From Patescibacteria group bacterium (GTDB lineage Bacteria; Patescibacteriota; Patescibacteriia; 2-01-FULL-39-33): a stretch of 64,000 nucleotides of DNA. Below, in pieces: positions 4,064-59,080 of this stretch (positions are counted from its first letter, which is position 1; every line of letters starts with the position of its first letter). The stretch is taken from positions 273,685 to 337,684 of the forward strand of contig JBAZKF010000001.1 of assembly GCA_041650895.1 (NCBI GenBank), read 5' to 3'. The translations under genes were made by a program, and so were the position numbers. The notes below the pieces were generated by a model. The model saw only the letters and a program-made list of their open reading frames with translations, did not search any database and had not been told where the DNA came from.

Positions 4064-4199
4064 ATATATTGTTTATTTTATTATATCATTTTTTTTGACG
4101 CAGGTAAAAAGATGTTTTCCACAATTAAAATTTCCCTTGAATATGGCGAATTTATTGACTATATATACGTTTTCACCTCGTACAGAATGCGGAACTCTT

Positions 4200-5102
4200 T
4201 TACAAATCAATTAGTGGATGCTTGGTTATTTGTGCCCTCAGGTGCTCGATATTGGCCGCCAAGTATATCGTCGTGGTCTTAATGTCGCTATGGCCCATCA
4301 TCTTTGCCAGTGAATAAATATCACAGCCGCCCTCCAGCATCAGTGTGGCAAACGTATGGCGTAGCTTGTGAATGGTGAAATTAATGCCTGAGGCCTCCTT
4401 GATACGGTCGACCAATCTCTTGAGGCCACTGGCCGTAAACCCGCCGTTTATAAACAGCGAGGTGAAAAATTCCGGGCAGGTTTTGTTCAGTTTTCGCCGC
4501 TCTGCGAGATACTTGTTTAATGTCTCCGCTAATTTGTAATTGATCGGCACCACCCTGTCCTTACTCCCCTTGCCCTGTCGGATAAATATCGACAAGTTCT
4601 CGATATCCACGTCAGTGAACTTCAGGTTTAGCAACTCCTTTTTTCGCAAGCCGGCCATAATAAACGTCGAGAAAATCGCATAATTGCGGTAACGCAGGAA
4701 TTTTTCCTTGTAAGGATAGTTATCTATCACTTCGAGAATTTTCATTGCTTCTTGCTTGGTCAGCTTCGGTGGCAATCGTTTTTCCAATTTCGGCGTCTCG
4801 ATGTCATCAATCGGATTGCCGGTCATATACCCCTCTTTGACGCACCAGCGGAAGAACACGGCCAGCGACTTGTGATAGCAGATGAAAGTGTTAGTCGTCC
4901 ATTTCTGCTGGGTACGGCCGTGATAAAACAAATTACGGACGTTTTCCTGACTGACCTGCTCAATATCCGTAATGTCGGATAATCTGGCGTAATAGTTGAT
5001 CACCTGCCGGTAGCGCTTGATCGTCGGCTGGGAAAACCCCTTGATGAACTTTGAATAATCAAAGAACTTTTGCGATAAAATTTGTATAGTCATAAAAAAC
5101 AC
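4200..5102 (-). CDS. Tyrosine site-specific recombinase / phage-type integrase
   Basis: C-terminal catalytic signature 'HKLRHTFATLMLEGGCDIYSLAKMMGHSDIKTTTIYL' (R..H-x-x-R...Y), N-terminal SAM-like core-binding domain. Immediately adjacent to the tRNA 3' end. Confidence 0.9.
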   Translation of the reverse strand: MFFMTIQILSQKFFDYSKFIKGFSQPTIKRYRQVINYYARLSDITDIEQVSQENVRNLFYHGRTQQKWTTNTFICYHKSLAVFFRWCVKEGYMTGNPIDDIETPKLEKRLPPKLTKQEAMKILEVIDNYPYKEKFLRYRNYAIFSTFIMAGLRKKELLNLKFTDVDIENLSIFIRQGKGSKDRVVPINYKLAETLNKYLAERRKLNKTCPEFFTSLFINGGFTASGLKRLVDRIKEASGINFTIHKLRHTFATLMLEGGCDIYSLAKMMGHSDIKTTTIYLAANIEHLRAQITKHPLIDL

Positions 5103-26350: not shown

Positions 26351-27385
26351 TTAGGAGTTAGGCACGACAATGTCCTTCAGTAAGGCCTCATCATCTAAAA
26401 GCGACCCCAAGCCGCGCACAGCGCAAGTCTGCGGATCCTCGGCTATATGCACCGGTATATTAATGCCTTTAGAAATGTAACTGTCCAATTCTTTCAACTG
26501 AGCCGTACCACCAGTCAAATAAATTCCTTTCTGGTAAATGTCAGCCACCAATTCCGGCGGAGTAGTTTCTAAGGTTGCCTTGATAATATTTAATATTTTT
26601 TCCAACGATTTGACGATGGCTTCGCGAACTTGCGCATCATTGACTTTTATTTCCCTTGGCAGTCCGGTCATAACATCACGGCCGCGCATGGCCATCTCCA
26701 ATGGCTCCTTAAGCGGTAAGGCCGAACCGATTTTCTTTTTAATATCTTCCGCCACCATTTCGCCCAAAATCAAAGAGAATTCCTCACGGGCGAAATTAAT
26801 AATGTCTTTGTCTAAAGCATTACCGGCGACACGAGAAACCTTAAAGTTAACAATGCCGTCTAACGAAATAACCGCAGCCTCGGCTAATCCGCAACCGATA
26901 TTGACCACCATATTGCCAGTCGGATCCTGAATGGGAATGCGTGCGCCGATAGCTGTAGCCATAACATTCTCCACCAAATAAACTTGCGCCGCTCCGGCGG
27001 CCATCACCACGTCGGCCACCGCTTTTTTTTCTACTGCCGTAACATCCAAAGGCACGCCCACCACCACGATAGGCATAGCTGAAAACCCCACGCGTCCGGC
27101 GCGGACTTTATTCATAAAAAACTTCAGCATTTTTTCGGTTACTTCAAAATCAGAAATAATGCCATACTCCAACGGGCGAGTGGCGGTAATGTGAGGCGGA
27201 GTTTTGCCCAGCATTCTTCGGGCTTCGTCGCCGATCGCCAAAATCTGATCAGTGCGATTGTTAACCGCCACCACTGAAGACTCAGCAATTACAATACCGC
27301 GATCCTGCTGATAGACCAAGGTATTACCACTGCCCAAGTCAATACCCAGACCGCGATTGAATTTTCCGAAGAATTTTTTAAACAT
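26351..27385 (-). CDS. mreB: Actin-like rod shape protein MreB
   Basis: 'GIDLGSGNTLVY', 'VVAVN', actin-fold phosphate-binding loops throughout. Confidence 0.92.
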   Translation of the reverse strand: MFKKFFGKFNRGLGIDLGSGNTLVYQQDRGIVIAESSVVAVNNRTDQILAIGDEARRMLGKTPPHITATRPLEYGIISDFEVTEKMLKFFMNKVRAGRVGFSAMPIVVVGVPLDVTAVEKKAVADVVMAAGAAQVYLVENVMATAIGARIPIQDPTGNMVVNIGCGLAEAAVISLDGIVNFKVSRVAGNALDKDIINFAREEFSLILGEMVAEDIKKKIGSALPLKEPLEMAMRGRDVMTGLPREIKVNDAQVREAIVKSLEKILNIIKATLETTPPELVADIYQKGIYLTGGTAQLKELDSYISKGINIPVHIAEDPQTCAVRGLGSLLDDEALLKDIVVPNS

Positions 27386-27441: not shown

Positions 27442-28671
27442 TTATTTTTTTAATTTCTTAATGATTTCTTCCACTGCCATCAGTTCCGCCTCAGACCCTT
27501 CCCTCTTCTTGATTTCCACCTTCTCCCCTGTTTTTTCACTCACGACTAAACGCCAGGTAATGCCCAGTAAATCGCTATCAGCGAATTTCTGACCGGCAGA
27601 AATATCGCGATCGTCATATAGCACTTCAATGCCGGCTTTGATTAATTCATCATAAACCTTCGCGGCTTGATCATCAGCTTTAAGCGACAGCAAATGAACG
27701 GAAAACGGCGAGGAGCTTTCCGGCCAAACAATGCCTTTATCATCATGGTACAACTCAACTATCGTCGCTACCAATCGAGAGATTCCAATGCCATAAGAAG
27801 CCATTAGAATCGGCAACTTCTTTCCCGACTCGTCGTTGATATAACCATTCATGTCCTTGGCATACTTATCGCCAAAATTAAAAATATTGCCCACCTCTAC
27901 GCTCTTGCCCTCTTTGACCGGTAAGCCGCACTTAGGGCATTTTTCACCGGCTTTGACTGTCGCAATTTCCGCATTCTGCGCGAAGTCACAACCGTCGCAA
28001 TAAATAATCTTATCTTCACCAGCGTCGGATACCACCTGAAACTCATGAGAAAAATTCTTGGTAAAAACACCGCCGGAAGCTTCTACGACCTTAACCTGTA
28101 AACCCAAACGGCTATACACTCGCTTGTAAGCTTCAATTTGACGCTGATAATACTGATTCAAATCTTCCTCGCTTAAATGAAAGCTATATAAATCCTTCAT
28201 CATGAATTCGCGACCGCGCATCAACCCGCCTTTCGCTCTGAGTTCGGCACGGAATTTGTTCTGGATCTGATAAACAGCCAAAGGCAATTCTTTATATGAA
28301 GAAATAAAACGACGCACCAAATCATAAATAACTTCTTCATGCGTGGCGGCCAGCCCCAATTCCTTGCCGGCCCCATCTTTAAATTGATACATCACCTCTT
28401 GCAAGCTGCCGCTCCAGCGACCAGTCTCTTCCCAAATATTTTTGGGTTGCAAAGCAGGCATGAGCAATTCTTGCCCGTCTTCGGCGTTCATTTCTTCCCG
28501 CACAATCCGCGCAATCTTTTGAATCACGCGCCAGCCAAGAGGCAAATATGTGTATACTCCGGCTTGGAGCATATCAACATAACCTCCTTGCACTAACAAT
28601 CTATGGCTGGCCGAAGTCGCATCTTTAGGCGGATTTTTGAGTGTCTTAGGAAATAACTTGGACTGTTTCAT
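27442..28671 (-). CDS. proS: Prolyl-tRNA synthetase, bacterial-like but lacking the INS editing domain (409 aa), with a Cys4 insertion
   Basis: N-terminal 'KQSKLFPKTLKNPPKDATSASHRLLVQGGYV..GVYTYLPLGWRV', class II motifs, C-terminal anticodon-binding domain. 'CDGCDF...CPKCG' lies where INS would be. Confidence 0.85.
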   Translation of the reverse strand: MKQSKLFPKTLKNPPKDATSASHRLLVQGGYVDMLQAGVYTYLPLGWRVIQKIARIVREEMNAEDGQELLMPALQPKNIWEETGRWSGSLQEVMYQFKDGAGKELGLAATHEEVIYDLVRRFISSYKELPLAVYQIQNKFRAELRAKGGLMRGREFMMKDLYSFHLSEEDLNQYYQRQIEAYKRVYSRLGLQVKVVEASGGVFTKNFSHEFQVVSDAGEDKIIYCDGCDFAQNAEIATVKAGEKCPKCGLPVKEGKSVEVGNIFNFGDKYAKDMNGYINDESGKKLPILMASYGIGISRLVATIVELYHDDKGIVWPESSSPFSVHLLSLKADDQAAKVYDELIKAGIEVLYDDRDISAGQKFADSDLLGITWRLVVSEKTGEKVEIKKREGSEAELMAVEEIIKKLKK

Positions 28672-28711
28672 AATGGGCTTATTTTACTATTATAAAAGCT
28701 TAATGTCAAAC

Positions 28712-29077
28712 TTAGAAAAATCGATGAAAAAAACCCTTCTTCTCCTTTGTTTCCCTAACCGCCGGAGCGGTTTTTTCTGCCACCAATCTCTGCAAACACT
28801 CACTGATTTTACCGCCTTCAGCCTCAACCGTTTCACCATCGTATTCGCCGCTGTGCGCTGATGTGCCTTCATAAGACGCCTGCTTTTGATCCAAATGCAG
28901 ATTAATCACGTAACCCGCGCCAGCCTGATTGATATAAACATGAAAACGCGGATAAAGGCCGACTCCCAGCCGACGCGCAAAGCTTGGCTCGGTAGCGCGA
29001 CGATCCAAAATCTGGCCATAACCGCAACGACGGACGGCATCTATCGGATTGAGACTATTTGGTATGCTTATTTTCAT
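28712..29077 (-). CDS. Hypothetical protein
   Basis: 121-aa ORF divergent from the three-paralog cluster; no confident motif. Confidence 0.35.
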   Translation of the reverse strand: MKISIPNSLNPIDAVRRCGYGQILDRRATEPSFARRLGVGLYPRFHVYINQAGAGYVINLHLDQKQASYEGTSAHSGEYDGETVEAEGGKISECLQRLVAEKTAPAVRETKEKKGFFHRFF

Positions 29078-29132
29078 ATTTGTTATATTAAATCCGGTTA
29101 ATTAAACTATGAAGAATATTTGCAAGGTAAAT

Positions 29133-29161
29133 TTGACAAATTTTATAAGATGTGATAATAT
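29133..29161 (+). promoter_or_regulatory. Sigma70-like promoter (TTGACA, 17-nt spacer, TAATAT) plus an AAGGAG SD for the first small paralog
   Basis: ttgaca at 29133-29138 and taatat at 29156-29161; 'aaggag' 8 nt before the ATG at 29218. Confidence 0.45.
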
Positions 29162-29217
29162 AGCCAATCAACAATGAACCTTAAAACCATATTTTGCAAC
29201 CATAAGGAGATACGGAT

Positions 29218-29538
29218 ATGATTGACACTTTGGAAAAAATCATTATCGCCAAAGGATTTCTGAAGAAACTAATTAGTCTTAAATACTGGGATAAGCTTTT
29301 TGATAATCATGGGATGCCGGAGATTGAGGGTATCAACGGTAACGGATCAGAGAAAAAACTTTCCATTTTAGCCGAAGCGTGCGTTAATCATCTCAATCAT
29401 TTTTGCGGATTAACATGTCCAACAGGAGTTCCAACTATTCAGCAGATTACTCTTTTGATCACTGAAAGTCGAAAGATTATAGCGGCGGCAGAATCAGCCA
29501 TACCAGGAAATCCAACCGAAGAGGAGAAAAAATCGTGA
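29218..29538 (+). CDS. Small protein, paralog A of a tandem three-member family
   Basis: Shared N-terminal motif M-[IV]-x-T-[LM]-[DE]-[KQ]-[IV]-x-[IL]-[AI]-K with the next two ORFs. Confidence 0.5.
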   Translation: MIDTLEKIIIAKGFLKKLISLKYWDKLFDNHGMPEIEGINGNGSEKKLSILAEACVNHLNHFCGLTCPTGVPTIQQITLLITESRKIIAAAESAIPGNPTEEEKKS

Positions 29539-29840
29539 TTACCACATTAGATCAGGTCAGATTGATAAAACGGTATATTTTCAGGATACGGAATTTATTT
29601 ACTACTGGACAATTAATAGAGATAAAGACTACTCAACAATACACAAGCGAAGCTCTTATGATTATTAATCATTTGGAGGACTTGCTTGGTAGGAATAGTG
29701 ATGGCAGTATAATGTGCGAGGGATGTTTCCTAACCCACAAACCGCCTAACACCGAAAACTTCTCAGCCTGGATTGATTTTATCCAGCCTTTTATTGACAA
29801 TGCTCTATTTCCTATACTGGAAGAACAAAAGTATCACTGA
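29535..29840 (+). CDS. Small protein, paralog B (start overlaps the stop of A: ATGA)
   Basis: 'MITTLDQVRLIKRYIFRI' N-terminus paralogous to A and C; 4-nt overlap suggests translational coupling. Confidence 0.5.
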   Translation: MITTLDQVRLIKRYIFRIRNLFTTGQLIEIKTTQQYTSEALMIINHLEDLLGRNSDGSIMCEGCFLTHKPPNTENFSAWIDFIQPFIDNALFPILEEQKYH

Positions 29841-29889
29841 TAGTACTAATTAAAAGCCGCATTAAACCTTCAACCGAAAAGGAAAAAAA

Positions 29890-30219
29890 ATGGTCACCAC
29901 GATGGATCAGATAACGATTGCTAAGCATCTCCTAAGATCTTTACAAAGAATGGCAAGCATTCAATTAGATTATGAGAAAAGAGATGCTTACCAACCAGAT
30001 TATGACAAGCTGATAATATCTTCAACCTCCGGCAATGGCAAACGTTTATCAGAAAATGCCTACCTGTGTGTCAAATTGATTGAAAGCATAATCCTGTCAG
30101 ATCAAAATGGTAAAGCTTTAATAGCTAGACTTAGCGAAAAATCAAATGCTACGAGCATTGATATGGAACATTACAATGAATGGGCCTTGCAAGTGGGTTG
30201 GTTGTTATCCGTCATGTAA
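29890..30219 (+). CDS. Small protein, paralog C
   Basis: 'MVTTMDQITIAKHLLRSL' N-terminus paralogous to A and B; SD 'aaaaggaaaaaaa' upstream. Confidence 0.5.
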   Translation: MVTTMDQITIAKHLLRSLQRMASIQLDYEKRDAYQPDYDKLIISSTSGNGKRLSENAYLCVKLIESIILSDQNGKALIARLSEKSNATSIDMEHYNEWALQVGWLLSVM

Positions 30220-30287
30220 AAACACCAATAAAACCCAGCAGTACCTTATGGCAATCCGACGACTCACCTTGTCGGATTTTTATTTTC

Positions 30288-31445
30288 CTATAATCCGATA
30301 CTGCGCCTAAACACGCTGATAATCTTCGCGCCGTATCTGATAATATCGCGATAAGTAATAATCACGATAAGCAACATCAACAACAGGAAACCGACATTAT
30401 GCGACAAGTTCTCCCATTTACTATTGACCGCTTTACCGCGAATTTTCTCCACGATCAGAAACATTATTCTACCGCCGTCCAAGGCCGGAAACGGCAAAAT
30501 ATTAATAATGGCCAGATTCAAGGACAATAAGGCAACGAATTGCAATACGTAAATCCAACCCATTTTGGCCGCTTGGCCGGTCATCACTGCAATGCCGACC
30601 GGACCGGCGAAATCCAATCCCATGGACGGCCCGCCGAATAACTGCCGAACCAAGCCCACCACCGCCAAAACAATCAAAACCAGCCACTGCCAAGTCATCA
30701 CGAGACCGTGCCATAAAGCCAAATGCAAAGGATAACGCACCACGCCGACATCCATAATGCCAATGCCGATACCGGTAATACCGTCTTTTTGCACAATCGC
30801 GATATCTTTTTCCAATTGCGCATTGTCGCGCTCAATTGTGATTTTAGCGGTTTGACCGACTAACTGGCTAAAATTATCCTTAAGCGCTTGCGAAGAGGTG
30901 ATTTCTACTCCGTTAACCTTGGCTATGACATCTCCCGGCTTGACATCGCTCCCAACAGCCGGCATATCTGGCAGAATCTCCGTTACTTGCACTTGCGGCG
31001 CAGACACGAATTTTCCGCCCTGATTGTCCTCCACCGCCGAAGGCATGCCGATGGCAAATCCCAACGCTAAAGCCAGAACGCACAAAACCAGGTTCATGGT
31101 TACGCCGGCGGCCAAGACGATATTCCTTTGCCAGATCGGCTTATGGCCGAAACTGTTAGACTCTCCCGCTTGGTCGCCATTTTCGCCCTTAATTTTGACA
31201 AATCCACCAACCGGAATCCAATTAATAGAATAAATCATCGGCTCATCCGGAGTAATCTCCCGATTACCCCAAATCAACCGCCAACGCCCTTGATATTTCT
31301 GCCAGCCGACAGCACGTGGCGGCAAGCCCATACCGAATTCTTCGCACTTAATGCCGAATCCCCGCGCCGTCAAAAAATGCCCCAACTCGTGGACAAATAC
31401 CAATAGGGATAAAATTAGGATAAATATAATAATCGTTAGTAACAT
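30288..31445 (-). CDS. rseP: Site-2 protease RseP (M50 zinc metalloprotease with PDZ domain)
   Basis: 'HELGHF' HExxH in TM1, PDZ-like central domain, C-terminal 'NLAIINILPFPALDGG' (LDG motif). Confidence 0.85.
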   Translation of the reverse strand: MLLTIIIFILILSLLVFVHELGHFLTARGFGIKCEEFGMGLPPRAVGWQKYQGRWRLIWGNREITPDEPMIYSINWIPVGGFVKIKGENGDQAGESNSFGHKPIWQRNIVLAAGVTMNLVLCVLALALGFAIGMPSAVEDNQGGKFVSAPQVQVTEILPDMPAVGSDVKPGDVIAKVNGVEITSSQALKDNFSQLVGQTAKITIERDNAQLEKDIAIVQKDGITGIGIGIMDVGVVRYPLHLALWHGLVMTWQWLVLIVLAVVGLVRQLFGGPSMGLDFAGPVGIAVMTGQAAKMGWIYVLQFVALLSLNLAIINILPFPALDGGRIMFLIVEKIRGKAVNSKWENLSHNVGFLLLMLLIVIITYRDIIRYGAKIISVFRRSIGL

Positions 31446-38294: not shown

Positions 38295-39299
38295 TTATTT
38301 TGTCGCCAAGATGCTTCTCTTGTAGCTGTCTAAATTCTCCAACGCAATGCCCGTGCCCTTGGCCACGCAATACAAAGCGTCTTCGGCCACATAGGCCTTA
38401 ATACCGGTTGCTTGGGTGATTAATTTATCAATATTACGCAGTAAACTCGTACCGCCTGACATAGTAATGCCATTAACCGTTACATCAGCCGAAAGCTCCG
38501 GCGGAGTCTCGCTTAAGACTGCCTTAATAGCCGCCACAATTCCTTCTAATTCACTCTGGATGGCTTCGGTCGTGTCGTCAGAGGAAATGCGAATGGTTTT
38601 AGGCAGGCCGGCGATAATATCTCGACCGCGCACATCCATATACATTTTTTCTTTCAGATATAAAGCCGAACCGATATTGATTTTAATTTCCTCGGCTGTA
38701 CGTTCACCTATGGCCATGCCGTACTTACGCCTGACATATTCAATGATCGCCGTGTCCAATCGCGTGCCACCGATTCTCACCGAAGTGGAAGTCACTACTC
38801 CGCCCAAAGAAATAACTGCTACCTCGGAAGTGCCACCGCCGATATCAATAATCATATGACCGGACGGAGAACCAATCGGAATATTAGCGCCGATAGCGGC
38901 GACGATCGGCTCTTTAATAATGTAGGCGGCTTTAGCTCCGGCAGCAATAGCCGCATCAACCACGGCGCGCCGTTCAGTTGAGGTAATACCGGCAGGAACC
39001 GCTATCATCACTTCCGGACGAAGCAAACGAATGCCACCCAAAGCTTTGTTAATAAAATACCTAAGCATCGCCTCGGTAGTTTTGTAATCAGCAATCACGC
39101 CATCACGCAAAGGCCGTTGAGCGATAATTGTATCCGGCGTACGTCCTAGCATTTCCTTAGCTTCAATACCAACAGCAATAACCTTGCGGTCTAAGGCGGA
39201 AATCGCCACCACTGATGGTTCATTTATTACTACTCCTTTCTTGGGTACATAAACCAAAATATTAGTCGTGCCCAAATCAATGCCGATTTTTCTAGCCAT
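38295..39299 (-). CDS. mreB: Second MreB/Mbl-like actin homolog
   Basis: 'IGIDLGTTNILVYV', 'IDIGGGTSEVAVIS'; paralog of the 26351-27385 product. Confidence 0.88.
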   Translation of the reverse strand: MARKIGIDLGTTNILVYVPKKGVVINEPSVVAISALDRKVIAVGIEAKEMLGRTPDTIIAQRPLRDGVIADYKTTEAMLRYFINKALGGIRLLRPEVMIAVPAGITSTERRAVVDAAIAAGAKAAYIIKEPIVAAIGANIPIGSPSGHMIIDIGGGTSEVAVISLGGVVTSTSVRIGGTRLDTAIIEYVRRKYGMAIGERTAEEIKINIGSALYLKEKMYMDVRGRDIIAGLPKTIRISSDDTTEAIQSELEGIVAAIKAVLSETPPELSADVTVNGITMSGGTSLLRNIDKLITQATGIKAYVAEDALYCVAKGTGIALENLDSYKRSILATK

Positions 39300-39319: not shown

Positions 39320-41290
39320 CTAAAACTTTATAAAAAAATCACGATCAGTCAATAAATCAGTGTCCCAAAGCAAACTTTGTCCCAGCACCTTTTGAGGCAT
39401 GATTTTTGAATAATAGGCGGTAATGCGCTGGTCAAATTTTAGATCAATTTTGAGTTTATGTCCAGGCGTGCCCGGTTGCTTCTGAACACTTAATTTGTAC
39501 AGGCCATCCTGAGCTAATTGCTTAACTTCCGGAGGCAGACGATATTCCAAAACCAAAGTCTTAGCGGTGCCCTGATCCACAGTCAAAAAAATACCGGCGT
39601 AACGCTTGCCCAATTCATTTTTAATCTCTACCTCTTTATCCAAAGATAAATCCTGTACGCCTTTACTGTCTTTAAAATATGCCCTGGTAAACCAACTGCC
39701 TTCCGGCACATACACCCTGGTGTAACTGCGATAGTTAGTGATCAATGCCGGCACCGATCGGCCGGTATGCTGATAATTAATTTCCACTTTGGCCAGTAAA
39801 TCGTCATTGGCACCGGGATTGACGCTGTAAGCTATTGTCCGCTTCATTACCTGGTCGGTTTTTAACGCCGCCAAGTTGGCATCAACGATATATAAATAAT
39901 CCCCCTCGCCTTGTTTCATTTCTCCCGACCAATTCTCTTGCGCCAGATAACCCTGCAACTGCGAATCGGTCATGTAAGCCAAAACCTGTTTCTCGTCAAT
40001 GTTCTTTTTCATAGCCAGCCACACCTGAAATAATTCTGTGGCATTGGCCTTGGTTACACGGGCAACAATATCTTTAGTCAAATCACCGATGATGTCTTTG
40101 CGGTTAGCTAAGTCAATGCCTTGGGACACATAAGCGAATTCAACTTGCTGTTCCAATTGATAAGTGAAATTATCGCTAGTAAAAGTGATGCCATCGGCGG
40201 TAATCGGTCCGGTAACCGCTAAAAAATTAGCAATGAACTCCGGCGTAATAGCGATAATACCGTCAAGTTTAGCCGGGACTAAACCGGCGTTGGCTCGCTC
40301 CACGTTCCAGAACCACTCAATTTGTCGCGCCGAAGTCGGCCAATCCGGAGACCAGTTGGCGTCACGCAAAAATAAATACTTCTGGGCGTTATAAGTGGTC
40401 ATAGGCCAAGGCGCCGGCACTTGCAACTTATCCTTGGACCACTTATCAAGATTGTAAATGTCATCCGTATGTATGGCAATAATATCGCCGTCTTTAATGG
40501 TTACTAAGCCGTAACTGCCGATAAATCCTCCGGTCGGCCTAAGCTCGGTGTTATTTTCAAACAGAATCAAATAATTCTTTTCTTGGTTGTAGCCGGCTAA
40601 TTCCGGCAGATATTTAAATAATGGCAGGGCCACTTCGCTTTGCTCCACCACTTCAGACAGCAGACGGTTAGCGGCAATTACTTTACTCTGGAAAATACCG
40701 GACAAATCATCGGAGCTAACCGAATTCAAGCTAGCTTTAGCTAAAGCGATTTTATTTTTGGCTTCTTCTAATTTATTTCTATTCTTAACAATGGAGGCCA
40801 ATAATTGACGCTTGGATTCGTTAGCGGAAAAATCAAACACCACTTTTTGTTCCTGAGTCTGCGAAGACAGATCAGAAAAAACCGACAACATCTCCTGATA
40901 ACCGGCCAACAAATCACCGGTTGCCAATATCATCTTATCGCCAGTTCGCGCAGTTTTGGCTACTGCCGGCAACCATAAAATCGGCCCCAATTGCTTGGTT
41001 TTTACCTGTACTACAGCCAGGTCTTCGCGAATCGCCGTCAGTTGGCTGTCAATAACAATAAAATCACCCCGAGCCGCTGCTGCCATAATCGGTTCAACCC
41101 GGTTATTTATCGCCACCAGCCGCACATAGATCTGACTGCCATTTACAGCCAAGGGAATAATGACGGCGGCAACAATTATAAGCAATAATAAAATTGGCGC
41201 CAGAAATCTCCACCACCTCCTCTTTGGCTTTTTACTAAAAGGGCTTGTCTGGAGCAATTGCTCCAATTTGTTTTTCTTCTTAAAGAACAT
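39320..41290 (-). CDS. Large membrane-anchored extracytoplasmic protein (DUF4012-like), envelope-polysaccharide associated
   Basis: Basic N-terminus plus single TM (WWRFLAPILLLLIIVAAVIIPLAV), a 600-aa periplasmic part; sits within the GT cluster. Confidence 0.45.
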   Translation of the reverse strand: MFFKKKNKLEQLLQTSPFSKKPKRRWWRFLAPILLLLIIVAAVIIPLAVNGSQIYVRLVAINNRVEPIMAAAARGDFIVIDSQLTAIREDLAVVQVKTKQLGPILWLPAVAKTARTGDKMILATGDLLAGYQEMLSVFSDLSSQTQEQKVVFDFSANESKRQLLASIVKNRNKLEEAKNKIALAKASLNSVSSDDLSGIFQSKVIAANRLLSEVVEQSEVALPLFKYLPELAGYNQEKNYLILFENNTELRPTGGFIGSYGLVTIKDGDIIAIHTDDIYNLDKWSKDKLQVPAPWPMTTYNAQKYLFLRDANWSPDWPTSARQIEWFWNVERANAGLVPAKLDGIIAITPEFIANFLAVTGPITADGITFTSDNFTYQLEQQVEFAYVSQGIDLANRKDIIGDLTKDIVARVTKANATELFQVWLAMKKNIDEKQVLAYMTDSQLQGYLAQENWSGEMKQGEGDYLYIVDANLAALKTDQVMKRTIAYSVNPGANDDLLAKVEINYQHTGRSVPALITNYRSYTRVYVPEGSWFTRAYFKDSKGVQDLSLDKEVEIKNELGKRYAGIFLTVDQGTAKTLVLEYRLPPEVKQLAQDGLYKLSVQKQPGTPGHKLKIDLKFDQRITAYYSKIMPQKVLGQSLLWDTDLLTDRDFFIKF

Positions 41291-51249: not shown

Positions 51250-52461
51250 CTAGAAGGCCGACGACAATTGCCACATCGGCAACATAACAGCAATAACGAA
51301 CAGAGCCACGGCGATTCCCAGGACAATCATAATGATCGGCTCAATCAAGTTAGACAAATTCCGAACTGAATTGTCTATCTCTTTAGAATAAAAATCTGAG
51401 GCTTTATCCAATACTTCTTCCAACTTTCCCGACTCCTCGCCGATACTGATCATATTAGCCACGATTTGGGGTAGATAAGGGCTAGCGGCCAAACTTTCAG
51501 AAATCTGATTACCTTCATTAACGCTCGCAATCGCATCATTAATCATTTCTTCAAACAATTTATTATCAACAACCTCCTTAACCACAGCCAATCCTTGGGC
51601 GATAGGAACGCCGCCTTTAATAAGCGTGGCGAAGCTTTGAGTAAAACGCACGATGTAAATATCTTTAAAAATAGCACCAAAAATTGGAATCTTAAGTTTT
51701 ACCCAATCCAAGAAACGTCTACCCTCCGGCGTCTGCCGGCCAACAAAAAATATGATCAATAAACCGATAGTTAAAAGTACCACCAACCACCAAAAATTCC
51801 TTAAAAAATTAGCCAGATTCATCATTAATCTGGTGATTAACGGAATTTGAGCGCCTGACTCCACCAACATTTTAGTAATACTGGGAATAACAAAAGCCAC
51901 GACAATAAAACCCACCACACCCAGGACCAAGACAATCATAGCTGGATAAATCATCGCACCTCTAACCTTGGATTCCAAATCATAATCTTTCTCTTTTTGG
52001 TCAGCCAAATAATTCATTACTTCAGACAATCGTCCCGAAGTTTCACCGGAACGCATGATGTTGGCATAAAATTTAGTAAAAACGTCTGGATAAATTTCCA
52101 AAGCTGAGGAAAAGCTTGACCCACCCTCCACTTCGTCTGCCACTTTGTCAATTACGTTACGTAAGTAGTCATTCTTGGTTTGTCGGACCAAAATACGCAA
52201 ACCCCGAACTAATGGAATGTTGGCTTCCACCATTACCGCCAACTGACGAAAGAATATGACTAAATCTTTACTACTAACTCGTTTAAAAAATAAAAATTTC
52301 TGCCAATACCAAACACTTAAAGTGGCTTGAGGACGAATATCAATAATGGCCAACTTTTTATCCAACAAAAAATTGGCTACGGCTTCGGCAGAAACCGCAT
52401 CCATGGCTGCTTCAACGATATTGCCTCGGCGATCCTTAGTCTTATACTTGTATATCGGCAT
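51250..52461 (-). CDS. pilC: Type IV pilus platform protein PilC (GspF family)
   Basis: Two GspF repeats, three TM segments, about 400 aa. Confidence 0.9.
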   Translation of the reverse strand: MPIYKYKTKDRRGNIVEAAMDAVSAEAVANFLLDKKLAIIDIRPQATLSVWYWQKFLFFKRVSSKDLVIFFRQLAVMVEANIPLVRGLRILVRQTKNDYLRNVIDKVADEVEGGSSFSSALEIYPDVFTKFYANIMRSGETSGRLSEVMNYLADQKEKDYDLESKVRGAMIYPAMIVLVLGVVGFIVVAFVIPSITKMLVESGAQIPLITRLMMNLANFLRNFWWLVVLLTIGLLIIFFVGRQTPEGRRFLDWVKLKIPIFGAIFKDIYIVRFTQSFATLIKGGVPIAQGLAVVKEVVDNKLFEEMINDAIASVNEGNQISESLAASPYLPQIVANMISIGEESGKLEEVLDKASDFYSKEIDNSVRNLSNLIEPIIMIVLGIAVALFVIAVMLPMWQLSSAF

Positions 52462-52473
52462 GATTGATAAAAA

Positions 52474-53538
52474 TTAATTTTTCCCCAAACCTTTAGGATC
52501 CGGAGAATGTTCCTGCGCCTCCTCGTAAGTAATCAGATTAGCCCTTAACGCCTCGCCCAAGGCCTGATTAAAAGATATCATACCCTCACGGCGCGAGGTG
52601 GCAATAATATTGTCTAATTGGTTAAGATTGCCGCTGGCAATAGTCGCTCTAACTGTGTCATTAACCAAAAGAATTTCGCAAACCGGGACTACTCCACCGC
52701 CGATTTTGGGTAAGAGCTTCTGACAAACCACAGCTTTCAAGGCGCCGGACAATAAATCACGGATACGATCCTGATCAAAAGCCGGAAAATAATCAAGAAT
52801 TGCAGTTAACGACCTGGCGCAAGTATCAGCGGCCATAGTAGTAATCACTAAAGCGCTACCACGAGCTATTTCTAAAACCGGCGGAATAATAGAGGCGCTG
52901 TTTAACTGTTCTAAGAACAATACATCGCCGCTTTCTTCTTGAAAATATTTTAGGGCATCAGCATAACTATTAGTATCCTGTCCCACTTGACGTTGCTCAA
53001 TAACGCTTTTTTTATTGGCAAAAATGTATTCAATCGGATCTTCAATAGTGATAATATACTTCTTGCGACTGACATTTATCTCTTCGATCATAGAGGCTGC
53101 GGTAGAAGTACGACCAGAACCAAAGGCGCCGGAAACAATAACCAATCCTCGATTTAACTTAATTAGTTCCTTGACTGCCGCCGGCATACCCAACTGACTT
53201 AAAGTAACAATCGTTACTGGCACATAACGAAAAGTAGAAGACAAAAAACCCTTCTGATAGAACAAATTTATCTTAAAACGAAGATTCTTATCAAAGTTAT
53301 ACGTTAATATTATTTCCCTCTCCTTGGCCAGCTTTTCCCGCTGTAGTGGCGTTAGTAATGCCTCAGCCAGTTTAATCATGAATTCTGCCGTAATAACACC
53401 CTTATCCTCAAGATAACGCAATTCACCGTTAACTTTTATAATCGGAAAATGGCCGACGGTAAAATGCCAATCGGAAGCGCTAGCTGTTATTCCTTCTGTT
53501 AATACCTGCCTTAAAAACAAATCCTGACTGGTATCCAT
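52474..53538 (-). CDS. pilT: PilT-like ATPase with degenerate catalytic motifs (likely pseudo-ATPase)
   Basis: PilT/PilU architecture with Asp-box 'IEDPIEY'. Walker A is 'GAFGSGRTST' (Lys to Arg), Walker B region is 'DVLFLEQLNS' where GEMRD is expected, and His-box is 'ITTMAAD' with no His. Confidence 0.7.
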   Translation of the reverse strand: MDTSQDLFLRQVLTEGITASASDWHFTVGHFPIIKVNGELRYLEDKGVITAEFMIKLAEALLTPLQREKLAKEREIILTYNFDKNLRFKINLFYQKGFLSSTFRYVPVTIVTLSQLGMPAAVKELIKLNRGLVIVSGAFGSGRTSTAASMIEEINVSRKKYIITIEDPIEYIFANKKSVIEQRQVGQDTNSYADALKYFQEESGDVLFLEQLNSASIIPPVLEIARGSALVITTMAADTCARSLTAILDYFPAFDQDRIRDLLSGALKAVVCQKLLPKIGGGVVPVCEILLVNDTVRATIASGNLNQLDNIIATSRREGMISFNQALGEALRANLITYEEAQEHSPDPKGLGKN

Positions 53539-53540
53539 AG

Positions 53541-53918
53541 TTAAGCAATTAACTTTTTAATCTTCTCCACTACTTCGGACGGCATAAAGTGCGCCTTAAT
53601 CAAATAATCTTTGGCACCCAACTTTAATCCCTTTTCCACATCAGATTTTTGGCTTAGGTTAGTCAAAAGAATAACCGGGATTTTCTCCAGTTTACTATCA
53701 GCTTTAAGCGACTTAAGGATGTCAAATCCGCTCATCTTGGGCAAAACCAAATCCAATAAAATTATGTCCGGCGAACCTTTCTTGGCTGTTTCCCAGCCCC
53801 TTTCTCCATCATAAGCCACAGTTACTTTAAATCCTTCCAGGGCAAATTTGGTTTTATACAAATCAGCCAGAAAAACATCGTCCTCCACAATAAGAATGTT
53901 TATTTTCTTGTCTTTCAT
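53541..53918 (-). CDS. Single-domain CheY-like response regulator (PilH/PilG-like) inside the pilus operon
   Basis: Receiver residues D11/D12, D54 (ILLDLV), T82, K104 all present. Confidence 0.85.
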   Translation of the reverse strand: MKDKKINILIVEDDVFLADLYKTKFALEGFKVTVAYDGERGWETAKKGSPDIILLDLVLPKMSGFDILKSLKADSKLEKIPVILLTNLSQKSDVEKGLKLGAKDYLIKAHFMPSEVVEKIKKLIA

Positions 53919-53949
53919 AAAATCAATTTAGTTGATAATTAAATTACAT

Positions 53950-55713
53950 TTATGTTACTTGCATCACTTCTTCGATCGTGGTCAAGCCCATCATTGATTT
54001 CATTATACCGTCCTGCATTAAGGTGACAAAATTCTGTTTCTTTAACTCCGCCATAACCACCTCGTTAGAAAAATTCTCTTTGGCGATAATATTTCGCAAT
54101 TCCGGAGTAATAGAGATAATTTCACTAATCACTGTCCGACCGGCAAAACCGCTCTTACCGCAAAGATCACAGCCAACTGCCCGATAGAACTTGACTTGTG
54201 GCACATACTGCTTAAGCAATTCTGGCGGAATCTGTTTAATTTCGCCTTCTACTTGTTTAAGTAATGGCCCAGGCAACGACACTTCTTGACGGCAACTGGG
54301 GCAGACTTTCCTGACTAAACGTTGCGCCATGATTAAATTAAGCGTGGAAGACAGCAAAAATGGCTCGGCTTTCATATCAATCATGCGTGGAATAGCGCCC
54401 CAAGCATTGTTAGTATGCAAAGTAGAAAAAACCAAGTGCCCGGTCAACCCGGCATGAATGACTAATTCGGCTGTTTCACTGTCACGAATTTCTCCCACCA
54501 TGATAATATTGGGGTCTTGACGCAAAATCGCCCTCAAACCGGAAGCAAAAGTAAAACCAACATCCGGATTTATTTGAGATTGATTAATGCCGGCGATAGA
54601 ATATTCTATCGGATCCTCCAAGGTAGTAACATTACTGTTTTCTGTTTTGATTTGGTTCAAAATGGAATATAAGGTTGTCGTTTTGCCTGAACCGGTCGGA
54701 CCGGTTAAAAGTATCAGACCAAACGGCTTGTTGGCATTCTGGTTTAAAATTTCTATTTCATTATCAAGAAAACCAAGCTGGGCCAAATTAGGAACGCCGG
54801 CGGAAGTGTCCAAAACGCGAATTACCACTTTCTCTGAATTAAGCATGGGCAGAACGGAAATACGCAAATCCACTTCCTGACCATCTATTTGCGAACGAAT
54901 ACGCCCATCTTGAGGTAGGCGCGTTTCATCCAGTTTTAAATTAGCCATGACCTTGATACGCGAAACTACGGCATTATGAATATAAGCCGGCAAAGTCAGC
55001 GAGGTGTGCAAGATACCATCCACGCGATAACGCACCCGGCTTTCATTACGACCCGGCTCAATATGAATATCTGAAGCGTTGCCCTCAATGCCATGACGAA
55101 TAATAACGGAGACGATTTTGGCTACGGGGGCGGCTTTTATTTTTTCTTCCAGGGCGGCTCCACCTTCCAATACCACTCCCTCCTCTTTCTCCGCATATTT
55201 CTCTTCCGCCGATTGTAAGGCGGTGCCTATTTCCTTAGTAAAACCGCTGTAACTTTTAATAAAACGACGAAAATCTTCTAATAAGATTACAAAGTAACTA
55301 ACCTGAAAACCGGAAGTCTTAGACCAAAATTCAATCGCTTCATTAGCCATAAAGTCACCTGGATCAACCAAACCGACGCTGACTTTCTTGCCTTCCTGTG
55401 CAAATGCAATCGCTTTATAATTTTCTGCCACTTTCTGAGATAGCAAATTAAGAGTTTCCGACTTAATCTGGCTGGTTGCCAGGTCAGCCACCGGTAAATT
55501 AAATACCTCGCCTTTTATCTTAAGCAGATCATTACGATTAAAGACATTCCGATCCATTAATTCCTCTTCAATCATCTTTTTACCCCTATTCGCCGCAATC
55601 AAAACTTCTTCTAAGATAGACAGATTGACCAGATTATGGCTGGCCAGATAATTCTTCATTTTTTCGTTGTATTGGATATCGGGCATAAATTTTATTCCCC
55701 CAATTCGCGACAC
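53950..55713 (-). CDS. pilB: Type IV pilus assembly ATPase PilB (GspE family)
   Basis: Walker A 'GPTGSGKTTT', Asp-box 'LEDPIEY', Walker B 'IIMVGEIRD', His-box 'FSTLHTN', C-terminal Zn 'CPSCR...GCDLCG'. Confidence 0.92.
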   Translation of the reverse strand: MSRIGGIKFMPDIQYNEKMKNYLASHNLVNLSILEEVLIAANRGKKMIEEELMDRNVFNRNDLLKIKGEVFNLPVADLATSQIKSETLNLLSQKVAENYKAIAFAQEGKKVSVGLVDPGDFMANEAIEFWSKTSGFQVSYFVILLEDFRRFIKSYSGFTKEIGTALQSAEEKYAEKEEGVVLEGGAALEEKIKAAPVAKIVSVIIRHGIEGNASDIHIEPGRNESRVRYRVDGILHTSLTLPAYIHNAVVSRIKVMANLKLDETRLPQDGRIRSQIDGQEVDLRISVLPMLNSEKVVIRVLDTSAGVPNLAQLGFLDNEIEILNQNANKPFGLILLTGPTGSGKTTTLYSILNQIKTENSNVTTLEDPIEYSIAGINQSQINPDVGFTFASGLRAILRQDPNIIMVGEIRDSETAELVIHAGLTGHLVFSTLHTNNAWGAIPRMIDMKAEPFLLSSTLNLIMAQRLVRKVCPSCRQEVSLPGPLLKQVEGEIKQIPPELLKQYVPQVKFYRAVGCDLCGKSGFAGRTVISEIISITPELRNIIAKENFSNEVVMAELKKQNFVTLMQDGIMKSMMGLTTIEEVMQVT

Positions 55714-56021
55714 TGCGCGGTTGAAGTATTAACAATAGCATTAACATCGGCTGTTTTGCGCTCAAACGGATTACCGCGACCGGAGCTTAATTCGACTCCG
55801 ACGATCGGCCAATCACTGCATTGATTCAACTGTTTAACATCGGGAAAAATGTCGCGATTTATTTTAACGAATTGACTGCCCAAATTAACCACATTCTGTT
55901 CTTGCAATAAAGAAAAGGGCCAAAATTTCTGCCAATAAGCCAAGGCGCCATAAAGAATAATGATCAAAATGACCAACAAAACATACAGGCGCGTAGATGA
56001 TTTTTTTTCTATCTTATCCAT
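55692..56021 (-). CDS. Small membrane-anchored pilus-cluster protein (PilP-like position)
   Basis: Single TM, about 110 aa, located between pilO and pilB. Confidence 0.4.
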   Translation of the reverse strand: MDKIEKKSSTRLYVLLVILIIILYGALAYWQKFWPFSLLQEQNVVNLGSQFVKINRDIFPDVKQLNQCSDWPIVGVELSSGRGNPFERKTADVNAIVNTSTAQCRELGE

Positions 56022-56024
56022 AAA

Positions 56025-56603
56025 TTAAGGCCGATAATAAGTCACCAGGGAAATATTATAAGATTTACCGTCATCAGTAACGCTAATGGAATTGATATCG
56101 GCAACAATCGCTGATTTTTCTAAAAGACTCAAAAACAGTTTAAAAGAATCATAATTACCGCCGACTAATTGTAACTTGATTAGCATTTTTTGTACGCCGG
56201 CCGCCGTAATCGGAGTATTAGGTAAGGCACTAACGCTGTCACTAAAAGACAAGCTGCTAGCCACAAATCCGGCGCGCTTAGCCAAATTGGTAAAATGCAC
56301 GATCATACTGGGGGTATCCGGCGCCGAGGGCAAAACTAAAGACAGCAAGCGTTTCTCTTCCGTTGTCAATTCAACTATTTGAGAAGCGTTCTTTTGCGAC
56401 TCATCTAATTGAAAATTAGCAATAGAAATTTTTTCTTGCAAACCGGCTAATATTTGCCGGCTATCATTATAATTCGCCAATTGTTTGTTTAGAACCAATA
56501 GATAACCAAAAATAACCACCAAAACAGCGATTGAAAACAGCCAAAAACGCTCATACTTACTCCAAATATCAATAATAGTTTTTTTATAGCTTAAATCGGG
56601 CAT
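56025..56603 (-). CDS. pilO: PilO-like pilus assembly protein
   Basis: N-terminal TM plus coiled coil plus C-terminal ferredoxin-like domain; follows pilN. Confidence 0.6.
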   Translation of the reverse strand: MPDLSYKKTIIDIWSKYERFWLFSIAVLVVIFGYLLVLNKQLANYNDSRQILAGLQEKISIANFQLDESQKNASQIVELTTEEKRLLSLVLPSAPDTPSMIVHFTNLAKRAGFVASSLSFSDSVSALPNTPITAAGVQKMLIKLQLVGGNYDSFKLFLSLLEKSAIVADINSISVTDDGKSYNISLVTYYRP

Positions 56604-56606
56604 AAA

Positions 56607-57887
56607 TTATTTAATCAAACGACGGAAAACACCGTCAGCTAGAGTTAGACGTAAAAGAAAATCAACACCAGTAACTCCAGCCTTGGGATCGGTAGAAACC
56701 TGCATGCTAGCAGTTCTGGCATCTTTGACAAAGTCATTAGCGCTCTTTAATGCTACAAGTTGCCGAGCTAATGTTTCATAGTTATCAGCTGTAGCAGGCA
56801 AAGAAATAAGTCCGGCGATGTCAGCCTTAAATTCCTTAAAATATACTCCGTCCAAAGTATATTTTTCCAATAATACAAAAAACTTACTCCAATAAATACG
56901 ATTATCTAATATTTTTTTAAGGGTAATAACGCGATTAGCCGTATCATTATTTATTCTAGCTCTTTCGTTATAATCACCGATGCTCTTCTGTAATTGGGTC
57001 AGTTCATTACGGTTGGTTGATATTTTCTGACTGATATTGCCCTGTAACCAGCTCATGCCCGAATAACATAAAAAAATCACTACTGCCGGTAAAATCATTG
57101 CCATAACTATCCGCAACCAATTAATGCCTCCCGCCTTCCCTTTTAATAACTCTGATGGTATTAGATTAATGTAAGTATGGCGATTATGTGTGATTGGCTC
57201 CGTCGTATGGTAACCGCCTGATTTGTCATGTTTATGCTTTTTATCCTTCTTGACTGGTTCAATCTTGCTGTCGGCAACTTTATCCATCCGCTCTTTAATC
57301 GGCTGAATCGAGGCGCTTTCTAATTCTGCTTTTTCTTCCTTAGGTTTAACCGATACTAAAGGAGCTGATGCTAAAGGCGCTGTTGTCTCCAATGTTCTAG
57401 CCAAATTAATCTTGGGCTCAGATTTATTGGAGCGCGAAAACAAAGAAGCTAATATTCTCCACCAACTATTTTTCTGGGTCTGTAGTAGATTATCTGGTGA
57501 TGACGCAACGACTCGGGAGACGGACCGGGATTCCGGTTGCCCCTGCTTTTTATAATTAACTGACTCTGTCAATCCCCTTGATGCCTGTCGCTGAAAATTA
57601 ATTTGGCCGACTTCTCCGCCAACCGGCAAATTAACCGGCGCTGAAGATTTGAAGGTTGGCAAAGCAATTGCCTGATTGCCACTGATCGGCACCTGAGAAC
57701 GAGATGAAGAAACAATTGGCGAAACCGGCTTACCGAACATCCTCTTTAACCAACCAGACTTTTCCAATTTTGTCTCCTCCGGATTAGTCAGATTAATATC
57801 AAAGCTTAGCGTTCGATTGGATCGCCGCCTTTGCTCTTCGTTTTCTTTTTTCCTTAACTCTTCCGGAAGCAAATTAACATCTGACAT
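56607..57887 (-). CDS. pilN: PilN-like protein with an unusually long Ser/Pro/Lys-rich cytoplasmic N-terminal extension
   Basis: 'MSDVNLLPEEL' (PilM-binding INLLP motif) at the N-terminus, TM about 245 aa later, C-terminal PilN domain. Confidence 0.6.
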   Translation of the reverse strand: MSDVNLLPEELRKKENEEQRRRSNRTLSFDINLTNPEETKLEKSGWLKRMFGKPVSPIVSSSRSQVPISGNQAIALPTFKSSAPVNLPVGGEVGQINFQRQASRGLTESVNYKKQGQPESRSVSRVVASSPDNLLQTQKNSWWRILASLFSRSNKSEPKINLARTLETTAPLASAPLVSVKPKEEKAELESASIQPIKERMDKVADSKIEPVKKDKKHKHDKSGGYHTTEPITHNRHTYINLIPSELLKGKAGGINWLRIVMAMILPAVVIFLCYSGMSWLQGNISQKISTNRNELTQLQKSIGDYNERARINNDTANRVITLKKILDNRIYWSKFFVLLEKYTLDGVYFKEFKADIAGLISLPATADNYETLARQLVALKSANDFVKDARTASMQVSTDPKAGVTGVDFLLRLTLADGVFRRLIK

Positions 57888-57928
57888 GTACTAATATTAT
57901 AACATTTTTTATTACTACACGCTAATGA

Positions 57929-59035: not shown

Positions 59036-59080
59036 AAAAAATAAAAAATGGTGACTAATAATTGATAATTAAATAACCGT

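Follow-up and report, generated by a model that had tools for sequence, protein, structure and literature searches.

The 64,000-nucleotide (nt) stretch analysed here (the window) covers positions 273,685 to 337,684 of the forward strand of contig JBAZKF010000001.1 (957,791 bp), from the Patescibacteria group bacterium assembly GCA_041650895.1. At positions 29100-30230 it holds three small genes in tandem, here called A, B and C, which form a cassette of their own on the strand opposite to that of the surrounding gene cluster. A first reading of the window, made from its letters without database searches (below, the sequence-only reading), had pointed to three consecutive open reading frames (ORFs) of 106, 101 and 109 amino acids (aa) at this place, and they are indeed there. 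Our comparison with related genomes shows that they belong to a previously undescribed, taxonomically restricted family of proteins of about 100 aa, predicted to be soluble alpha-helical bundles. The family is new and its kind is familiar: a variable slot that holds a cassette of small, tandemly encoded proteins which evolve fast. We have high confidence in the anatomy and evolution of the cassette as described below.

The cassette and its insertion slot

The three genes lie on the same strand and their products begin alike (MIDTLEKIIIAK in A, (V→M)ITTLDQVRLIK in B and MVTTMDQITIAK in C), so that the common N-terminal motif reported by the sequence-only reading is found in all three. The same reading had placed a consensus sigma-70 promoter and a strong Shine-Dalgarno (SD) sequence ahead of A; both are present (Table 1), and an alignment of the six intergenic regions shows the -35 hexamer, the TGATA core and the AAGGAG of A to be unchanged across six genomes. 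An Rfam scan of the cassette gave no credible match and no family in the 5' untranslated region (UTR), the only weak match lying outside, at 28660-28699. A and B had been said to overlap by ATGA: the 4-nt overlap of the A stop and the B start stands, and it reads GTGA in the window, where B starts with GTG, and ATGA in the orthologous loci. An overlap of A with the next gene is present in every locus, those in which C directly follows A included. The EEEKKS tail at the C-terminus of A encodes the SD of the next gene, and the invariance of this disordered EEEK(K)S tail can be explained by the SD embedded in it. For C we prefer the start at 29890 (MVTTMDQ) to that of public gene calls, which begin four codons later, at Met5 (105 aa, P0001), because MxTTMDQ is conserved in paralogues and orthologues and because of the SD spacing. 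With a strong promoter, a strong SD, translational coupling of A and B and a terminator, A-B-C is one operon.

Table 1. Features of the cassette and its two flanking genes, in window positions
Feature	Position	Strand	Length	Description
Promoter	29133..29161	+		Sigma-70-type, TTGACA-17-TAATAT with TG upstream of the -10 hexamer; scan 10/12 matches plus TG
5' UTR	29162..29217	+		Conserved block CCTTAAAA; Shine-Dalgarno AAGGAG at 29204-29209, 8 nt before the ATG of A
Gene A	29218..29538	+	106 aa	Most conserved paralogue
Gene B	29535..29840	+	101 aa	GTG start; dispensable paralogue, missing from two lineages
Junction block before C	29860..29889	+		Degenerate copy of the A 3' end plus SD
Gene C	29890..30219	+	109 aa	Fastest-evolving paralogue
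Terminator-like hairpin	30253..30288	+		Intrinsic-terminator-like, 10-bp stem and T-run; ends the cassette, convergent with rseP
U	28712..29077	-	121 aa	Flank, not family; divergent from the cassette
rseP	30288..31445	-		Flank, not family; site-2 protease, Peptidase_M50 plus PDZ

Gene order is the same in every locus: pbp2-mreD-mreC-mreB-proS-U, then the cassette on the opposite strand, then rseP-frr. The position between proS and rseP given by the sequence-only reading is right on the rseP side; on the other side the cassette adjoins U, with proS one gene beyond. U is the divergent 121-aa gene that had been called an orphan. The gene and its strand were read correctly, but it is no orphan, as relatives are encoded by 281 GTDB species genomes across Buchanan-, Magasanik-, Falkow-, Uhr- and Kerfeldbacteria. 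Eighty loci were kept for the synteny comparison. In the 31 that retain rseP upstream of U, the two genes run in one direction with 0-75 nt between the rseP stop and the U start in 20, among them the closest outgroups, L019 and L018 (U 71% and 67% identical, respectively), which are without the cassette. Because rseP abuts U in those 20 relatives, against a gap of 1242-1312 nt in the cassette-bearing genomes, we read the cassette as an insertion: it is a roughly 1.2-kb opposite-strand insertion in a conserved, probably co-transcribed cluster, with a GC content of 36-40% as against 45-50% in the flanks.

In a few more distant genomes, the slot between rseP and U holds a single small opposite-strand ORF. 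When the A and B profiles were ranked against all 7,952 ORFs of 88 loci, the best non-family match of the A profile was the 112-aa slot ORF of L029 (E=0.016; hhalign E=1.8e-4 over 79 columns), and that of the B profile was the 90-aa slot ORF of L024 (E=0.38). Across the fetched loci, the slot holds no more than about five ORFs of 69 aa or longer on the cassette strand, and we estimate the odds of such an ORF topping a ranking by chance at roughly 5 in 7,952 each time, which makes coincidence unlikely. These two ORFs are therefore probable distant single-copy members of the family, and if so the slot would be an old, patchily occupied hot-spot.

Other small elements occur in the slot and its spacers. 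In L012 it is filled by another pair of small opposite-strand ORFs (84 and 92 aa, 4188-4745, minus strand); neither the first of these nor a 69-aa slot ORF of L055 could be placed in the family (E=0.02-0.6). The first L012 ORF has a faint N-terminal likeness to the family (WEQIAIARRI versus MDQITIAKHL) that is not significant, and its promoter and UTR resemble those of L004 and L089, which is suggestive and likewise not significant. The spacer between U and the cassette in L004 (5741-6000) holds an extra insertion of about 125 nt with terminal inverted repeats (GTCATTCCGACC...GGTCGAAATGAC), and similar 'gtcattcc...ggaatgac' repeats occur in the L012 spacer (4746-5000). Both look like miniature inverted-repeat transposable element (MITE)-like elements that target the same intergenic hot-spot.

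Paralogy, predicted structure and evolution

As single sequences, A and C align in BLASTP with E=6e-5 and B and C with E=0.006, over the N-terminus only, and A and B give no alignment. With profiles built from orthologues recovered in sister genomes, hhalign joins B to C (94.5% probability, E=7.6e-8, 80 columns) and A to C (86.6% probability, E=4.5e-6, 59 columns), A and B matching over 27 N-terminal columns only (E=0.007). The likeness of the three, which the sequence-only reading had called paralogous on their shared motif, is more than chance, and paralogy is significant in the profile comparison. Since the B-C and A-C matches are significant, all three are linked transitively, and these alignments show that A, B and C are true paralogues whose likeness reaches past the N-terminal motif. 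B and C can be aligned over their full length; M1, D6 and Q7 are invariant in them, as are an Ala and a Glu of helix 2, a Gly in the loop and a Trp of the last helix. A shares with both of them helix 1 and the helix-2 motif (L/Y)(S/T)xxAxxx(I/V)xxL(E/N). U, considered as a further member, was ruled out, with an hhalign probability of about 1% against A and C.

The AlphaFold2 models of A (pLDDT 81.7, pTM 0.72) and C (pLDDT 81.7, pTM 0.75) have their helices in like order: a long N-terminal helix from residue 4, a low-confidence loop or mini-hairpin, helix 2 and one or two C-terminal helices, which in A cover residues 4-23, 50-63 and 74-93. The cassette proteins are thereby predicted, at a pLDDT of about 82, to be soluble helical bundles. 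No hydrophobic segment, signal peptide or transmembrane segment was found in A, B or C (maximum KD19 at most 1.47), and their isoelectric points are near neutral, ranging from 4.7 to 9.1. In the models the 'MITTxDQ' start would be a Met-Ile followed by a T-x-x-D/E helix-capping box that opens core helix 1, and not a targeting signal. A carries an invariant C55-x2-H58-x4-C63-x3-C67, the L089 copy included, which may be a metal-binding site; CxxC occurs in some B copies and is not universal, and cysteines are not conserved across B and C.

All three genes encode proteins and change at a much higher rate than the genes around them. Their ORFs are intact wherever they are carried, in six genomes, though the identity of C drops to 27% and lower; the sequence-only reading had named a lack of conservation as coding in relatives as a ground for refuting it, and the reverse is seen. 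Pairwise NG86 ratios of non-synonymous to synonymous substitution rates (dN/dS) are below 1. Orthologues of A are 68-79% identical (45% in L089) and those of C 39-50% (27% in L089), with dN/dS of 0.19-0.37 for A, 0.22-0.40 for B and 0.29-0.71 for C, compared with 0.01-0.13 for U, proS, rseP, mreB and mreC, bar one low-divergence U pair at 0.285. Between the window and L002, dN is 0.12 for A, 0.46 for B and 0.52 for C, and 0.022 for proS and 0.007 for mreB; overall, the non-synonymous rate of the cassette genes is about 5-70 times that of the housekeeping neighbours. In columns 61-105 of the C alignment, close pairs have a dN/dS of about 1 (for example 0.62/0.58 and 0.42/0.32). A pseudogene or fragmented gene is out, given that six genomes keep them as distinct ORFs, each behind an SD of its own, at dN/dS below 1.

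Copy number differs among relatives, a variation that the sequence-only reading had proposed to look for. Four genomes (the window, L002, L004 and L089) have A-B-C and two lineages (L006 and L007/L008) have A-C only, with C overlapping A by ATGA. In the three-gene loci the roughly 30 nt upstream of C are a degenerate copy of the A 3' end, embedded SD included; in L002, for instance, the block before B reads ...ctcaactcaagaggaggaaaaatcATGATTACC and that before C ...cttcaactgaagaggaggaaatcATGATTACC. Because this junction is copied and the first 25 nt or so of B and C are alike, B and C stem from tandem duplication of a unit that includes the SD-bearing junction, which gave the order A-B-C. Recombination between the two junction copies would give exactly the A-C arrangement. 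L006 and L007 are near L002 (U of L006 is 93% identical to that of L002) and more distant genomes keep B; as close relatives of L002 lack B and more distant genomes have it, loss is the parsimonious direction, and we infer that the A-C loci arose through loss of B by recombination between the repeats.

The cassette is also mosaic and recombines between lineages. Synonymous divergence (dS) of A between the window and L006 is 0.00 at the 3' end versus 0.4-0.55 in the 5' two-thirds, and between L006 and L007 it is 0-0.05 in the middle and 1.62 at the 3' end. The B of the window is 71% identical to that of L004 and only 42% to that of L002, discordant with every flanking gene, all of which put the window nearer L002.

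The family is narrowly distributed. Scans of A, B, C and U against Pfam, NCBIfam, PHROG and PADLOC returned only isolated sub-threshold matches (2B_soluble, Csn2 and others), no Pfam match is common to the 18 members scanned, the best PHROG match was no better than E=0.14, and a sequence-profile search of the PDB gave nothing below E=0.099. Foldseek found nothing below E=0.7 for the A and C models against the PDB or the C model against BFVD, and its top matches (MIT domains, prefoldin, designed four-helix bundles and one HEPN at E=4.9) were rejected as generic helical likeness. In word-seeded searches of 5.8 billion clusters, C found only itself and A four orthologues (68-79% identity); B and C orthologues were found only in genomes that hold A orthologues. 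A full HMMER scan of 1.84 billion representative proteins with a combined A, B and C profile gave nine proteins, eight of them from the same clade, two of which come from a sixth genome; the ninth, a 435-aa repeat protein (P0016), is a low-complexity repeat artefact. A scan of JGI metagenomes returned the known loci and no further members, and scans of IMG/VR no relative. In all, about six Buchananbacteria-like Patescibacteria genomes carry the family, each of them in this slot; the source metagenome-assembled genomes (MAGs) are labelled 'Patescibacteria group' and 'Candidatus Buchananbacteria'.

Possible roles of the cassette

The conserved consensus promoter, the strong SD and the invariant overlap of A with the next gene imply abundant, stoichiometric co-expression, which suggests that A probably pairs with a partner of the B/C type in a putative hetero-oligomeric helical bundle. 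Such a module would probably act by protein-protein binding, the most likely activity for a helical bundle of about 100 aa that lacks catalytic motifs. The target that we prefer, speculatively, is a protein of an antagonist, in which case the cassette would be a conflict module of the immunity or neutraliser type, with duplication, recombination and fast change of the protein surface diversifying its specificity. Fast evolution, copy turnover and mosaicism fit genes in conflict. We consider this the best explanation overall, with a confidence of 0.35, a figure that reflects the mechanism; in a conflict- or immunity-like mechanism as such we have low confidence.

Known immunity genes offer the nearest parallel. 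The esaG and tipC immunity paralogues, directed at toxins of the Gram-positive type VII secretion system (T7SS), stand in tandem, and copies are gained and lost via recombination between conserved blocks (PMC9484751). Like them, the cassette consists of non-identical tandem paralogues encoding small proteins (cytoplasmic in the cassette by prediction), with conserved gene-end blocks for recombination and a copy number that differs between close strains; recombination-driven copy change among tandem non-identical paralogues is thus a property that it shares with immunity genes. Unlike them, it has no sequence or fold relation to EsaG (DUF600) or TipC and no cognate toxin or T7SS locus beside it, it has two or three copies only, it sits in a housekeeping cluster of a candidate phyla radiation (CPR) genome, and its neutralising activity is putative. 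The cassette further resembles orphan immunity islands and polymorphic-toxin immunity arrays in its small, fast-evolving tandem proteins, patchy occurrence and GC content below that of the surroundings. Such arrays are usually a mixture of unrelated Imm families placed downstream of a toxin or its orphan C-terminal cassettes; the cassette differs from them in being a single new family with no toxin remnant and with a dedicated promoter and terminator.

Several observations weigh against a role in conflict. No toxin, toxin cassette or defence gene was found within ±10 kb or among the 20 larger window ORFs scanned, nor does any secretion-system substrate or phage gene stand beside the cassette in the same sample, so that the toxin gene or orphan toxin C-terminal cassettes that immunity proteins have beside them, usually upstream, are missing there. 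No member matches a known immunity, antitoxin, anti-defence or effector family in Pfam, NCBIfam, PHROG or PADLOC, and the 18 members include no match to Imm families of Pfam, SUKH/SMI1, DUF600, EntA_Immun or others; there is no fold match in the PDB or BFVD either. A dN/dS below 1 with high dN fits relaxed constraint on a dispensable protein no less well than it fits diversifying selection. The evolutionary statistics are thin, the genomes numbering about six and being mostly groundwater MAGs or contigs with shared 'SO_2016/2017' isolate names or from one JGI sample. The sequence-only reading had held tandem small proteins of this kind to be typical of immunity-protein arrays, anti-defence loci or small-effector families. 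As a general class, conflict-type evolution, this is partly supported, and none of the three specific classes is shown: for the first, no toxin gene or cassette was found among the window genes sampled and no known immunity family matches; for the second, no phage or anti-defence link was found in PHROGs, IMG/VR or BFVD; and for the third, the proteins have no signal peptide or transmembrane segment that would suggest secretion.

Relaxed constraint is the core of the most serious rival, which makes the cassette an accessory or regulatory module of its lineage that plays no part in conflict, its products being helical adaptors or chaperone-like proteins, for example of the envelope or cell shape as the rseP/mreBCD neighbourhood would suggest, that evolve fast under weak constraint. 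This would account for a dN/dS below 1 everywhere but in one segment of C, for the lack of conflict genes around the cassette and for the dispensability of B, and clade-specific hypothetical proteins are abundant in CPR genomes. It is less easily reconciled with an opposite-strand insertion that has its own promoter and terminator outside the neighbouring operon, with a distribution that is patchy even among close relatives (L018 and L019 are without the cassette), or with inter-lineage mosaicism and discordant B alleles, which are unusual for a simple housekeeping accessory. We give it the same low confidence as the conflict mechanism.

The conserved start followed by a diverging remainder, together with fast evolution, the episymbiotic lifestyle of CPR bacteria and the type IV pilus genes elsewhere in the window, could also suggest small effectors that the episymbiont secretes or transfers to act on its host, the N-terminus serving as export signal. 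However, the proteins lack Sec, Tat and class III signals as well as hydrophobic segments, the models make the conserved N-terminus, with high confidence, the first core helix with its capping box, no secretion genes are adjacent and the pilus genes lie more than 20 kb away; effectors are accordingly improbable.

The bicistronic, translationally coupled core, whose GTGA or ATGA overlap is kept in all loci, invites comparison with type II toxin-antitoxin (TA) operons, which likewise have two core genes that overlap by 4 nt at stop and start, encode small proteins and occur patchily; A would then be the antitoxin of an addiction module, coupled to toxins of the B/C type and expressed from the strong promoter. 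Unlike the pairs known from such operons, which belong to recognised distinct families and in which the antitoxin usually has a DNA-binding domain, the cassette proteins are paralogous to one another and of a single helical fold, they number three where B is kept, no toxin or antitoxin model of Pfam, NCBIfam or PADLOC matches, no DNA-binding motif is evident in the proteins, and the putative distant relatives are single genes. We find this reading decidedly improbable. Paired proteins of the WXG100/Esx type are comparable in being helical proteins of about 100 aa from adjacent, co-translated paralogues for which pairing is plausible; they differ from the cassette proteins, which have no WXG motif and no PF06013 match and show three or four helices and a hairpin loop instead of a helix-turn-helix hairpin, no Esx being among the Foldseek matches and no T7SS genes being seen in the window.

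A remnant of a phage or other mobile element, such as anti-defence or superinfection-exclusion genes, would agree with a GC content below that of the flanks, with insertion into a conserved cluster and with the MITE-like repeats that L004 and L012 carry in the same spacer. Against it stand the poor PHROG matches, the lack of IMG/VR relatives and of a BFVD fold match, flanks free of any integrase, att-like repeat, phage or prophage gene, and occupation of the same slot in all six genomes, which together make it very improbable. Least credible are precursors of ribosomally synthesised and post-translationally modified peptides, in which a conserved leader would precede a variable core with cysteines and which the conserved N-terminus, the tandem copies and the cysteine motifs of A and some B copies might recall, since divergence runs over the whole length and is not concentrated C-terminally, the models are confident globular bundles, the surrounding ±10 kb hold no maturation or modifying enzyme, the NHLP and Nif11 leader models of NCBIfam and Pfam give no match and the cysteines are not conserved across B and C.

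Returning to the conflict module, its most specific form would be a putative hetero-oligomeric immunity or neutraliser family, the first such in Patescibacteria, that shields ultra-small episymbionts from toxins of the host or of competitors; its specificity would vary through tandem duplication, deletion and recombination between lineages, all at one dedicated hot-spot of the chromosome. We think this rather unlikely as it stands. An Esx secretion system has been reported as deployed by hosts against Patescibacteria epibionts (PMC13622651), which lends it background plausibility only. If a conflict role is correct, the cassette would give a way to study how episymbionts survive antagonism by hosts and neighbours, an area with almost no molecular data, and would add a new fold family to the immunity repertoire. 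Whatever its role, it is a small, clean case of gene-family birth and turnover in a reduced genome, in which one slot of about 1.2 kb shows duplication via an SD-bearing junction, loss via the same repeats and mosaic recombination.

Neighbouring genes and other features

The cassette is flanked by U, proS, mreBCD and pbp2 on one side and by rseP, frr and holB on the other. Within ±10 kb and among the 20 larger window ORFs we found housekeeping, glycosyltransferase and type IV pilus genes, a Ser/Thr kinase and a tyrosine recombinase, and several ORFs without a Pfam match.

U itself is well conserved, with 79-83% identity and a dN/dS of 0.06-0.13 in sister genomes. It has the motif YPRFH.Y...NLHLDQKQASYEG..HSGEY and its usual place is between rseP and proS; no match was found in Pfam, NCBIfam or the PDB. 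U is a conserved CPR protein for which a family description of its own may be worth considering. In the 40-nt spacer between U and proS, a near-consensus promoter-like site (28681-28709, minus strand, TTGACA-17-TAAAAT, 11/12) suggests that proS has its own promoter in the window genome.

Extra unrelated small ORFs stand between mreB and proS in L004 (3747-4058, minus strand, 103 aa) and in L089 (3566-3832, plus strand, 88 aa). They are missing from the window and mark a second small variable spot of the same cluster. The window has two mreB paralogues, at 26351-27385 and 38295-39299, both on the minus strand; the second lies away from mreCD and adjoins a DUF4012 protein (39320-41290) and glycosyltransferases. 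A type IV pilus cluster occupies 51250-63480 on the minus strand, with a PilC-like T2SSF gene at 51250-52461 and a PilB-like T2SSE gene at 53950-55713, and after the pilus genes come three large ORFs (426, 560 and 905 aa) without a Pfam match. Finally, many GTDB records with the rseP-U-proS gene order of the CPR type (L013, L014, L016, L021, L023-L025, L029 and others) are titled 'uncultured Gammaproteobacteria bacterium' (TPA_asm or binchicken MAGs); these titles are probably taxonomic mislabels.

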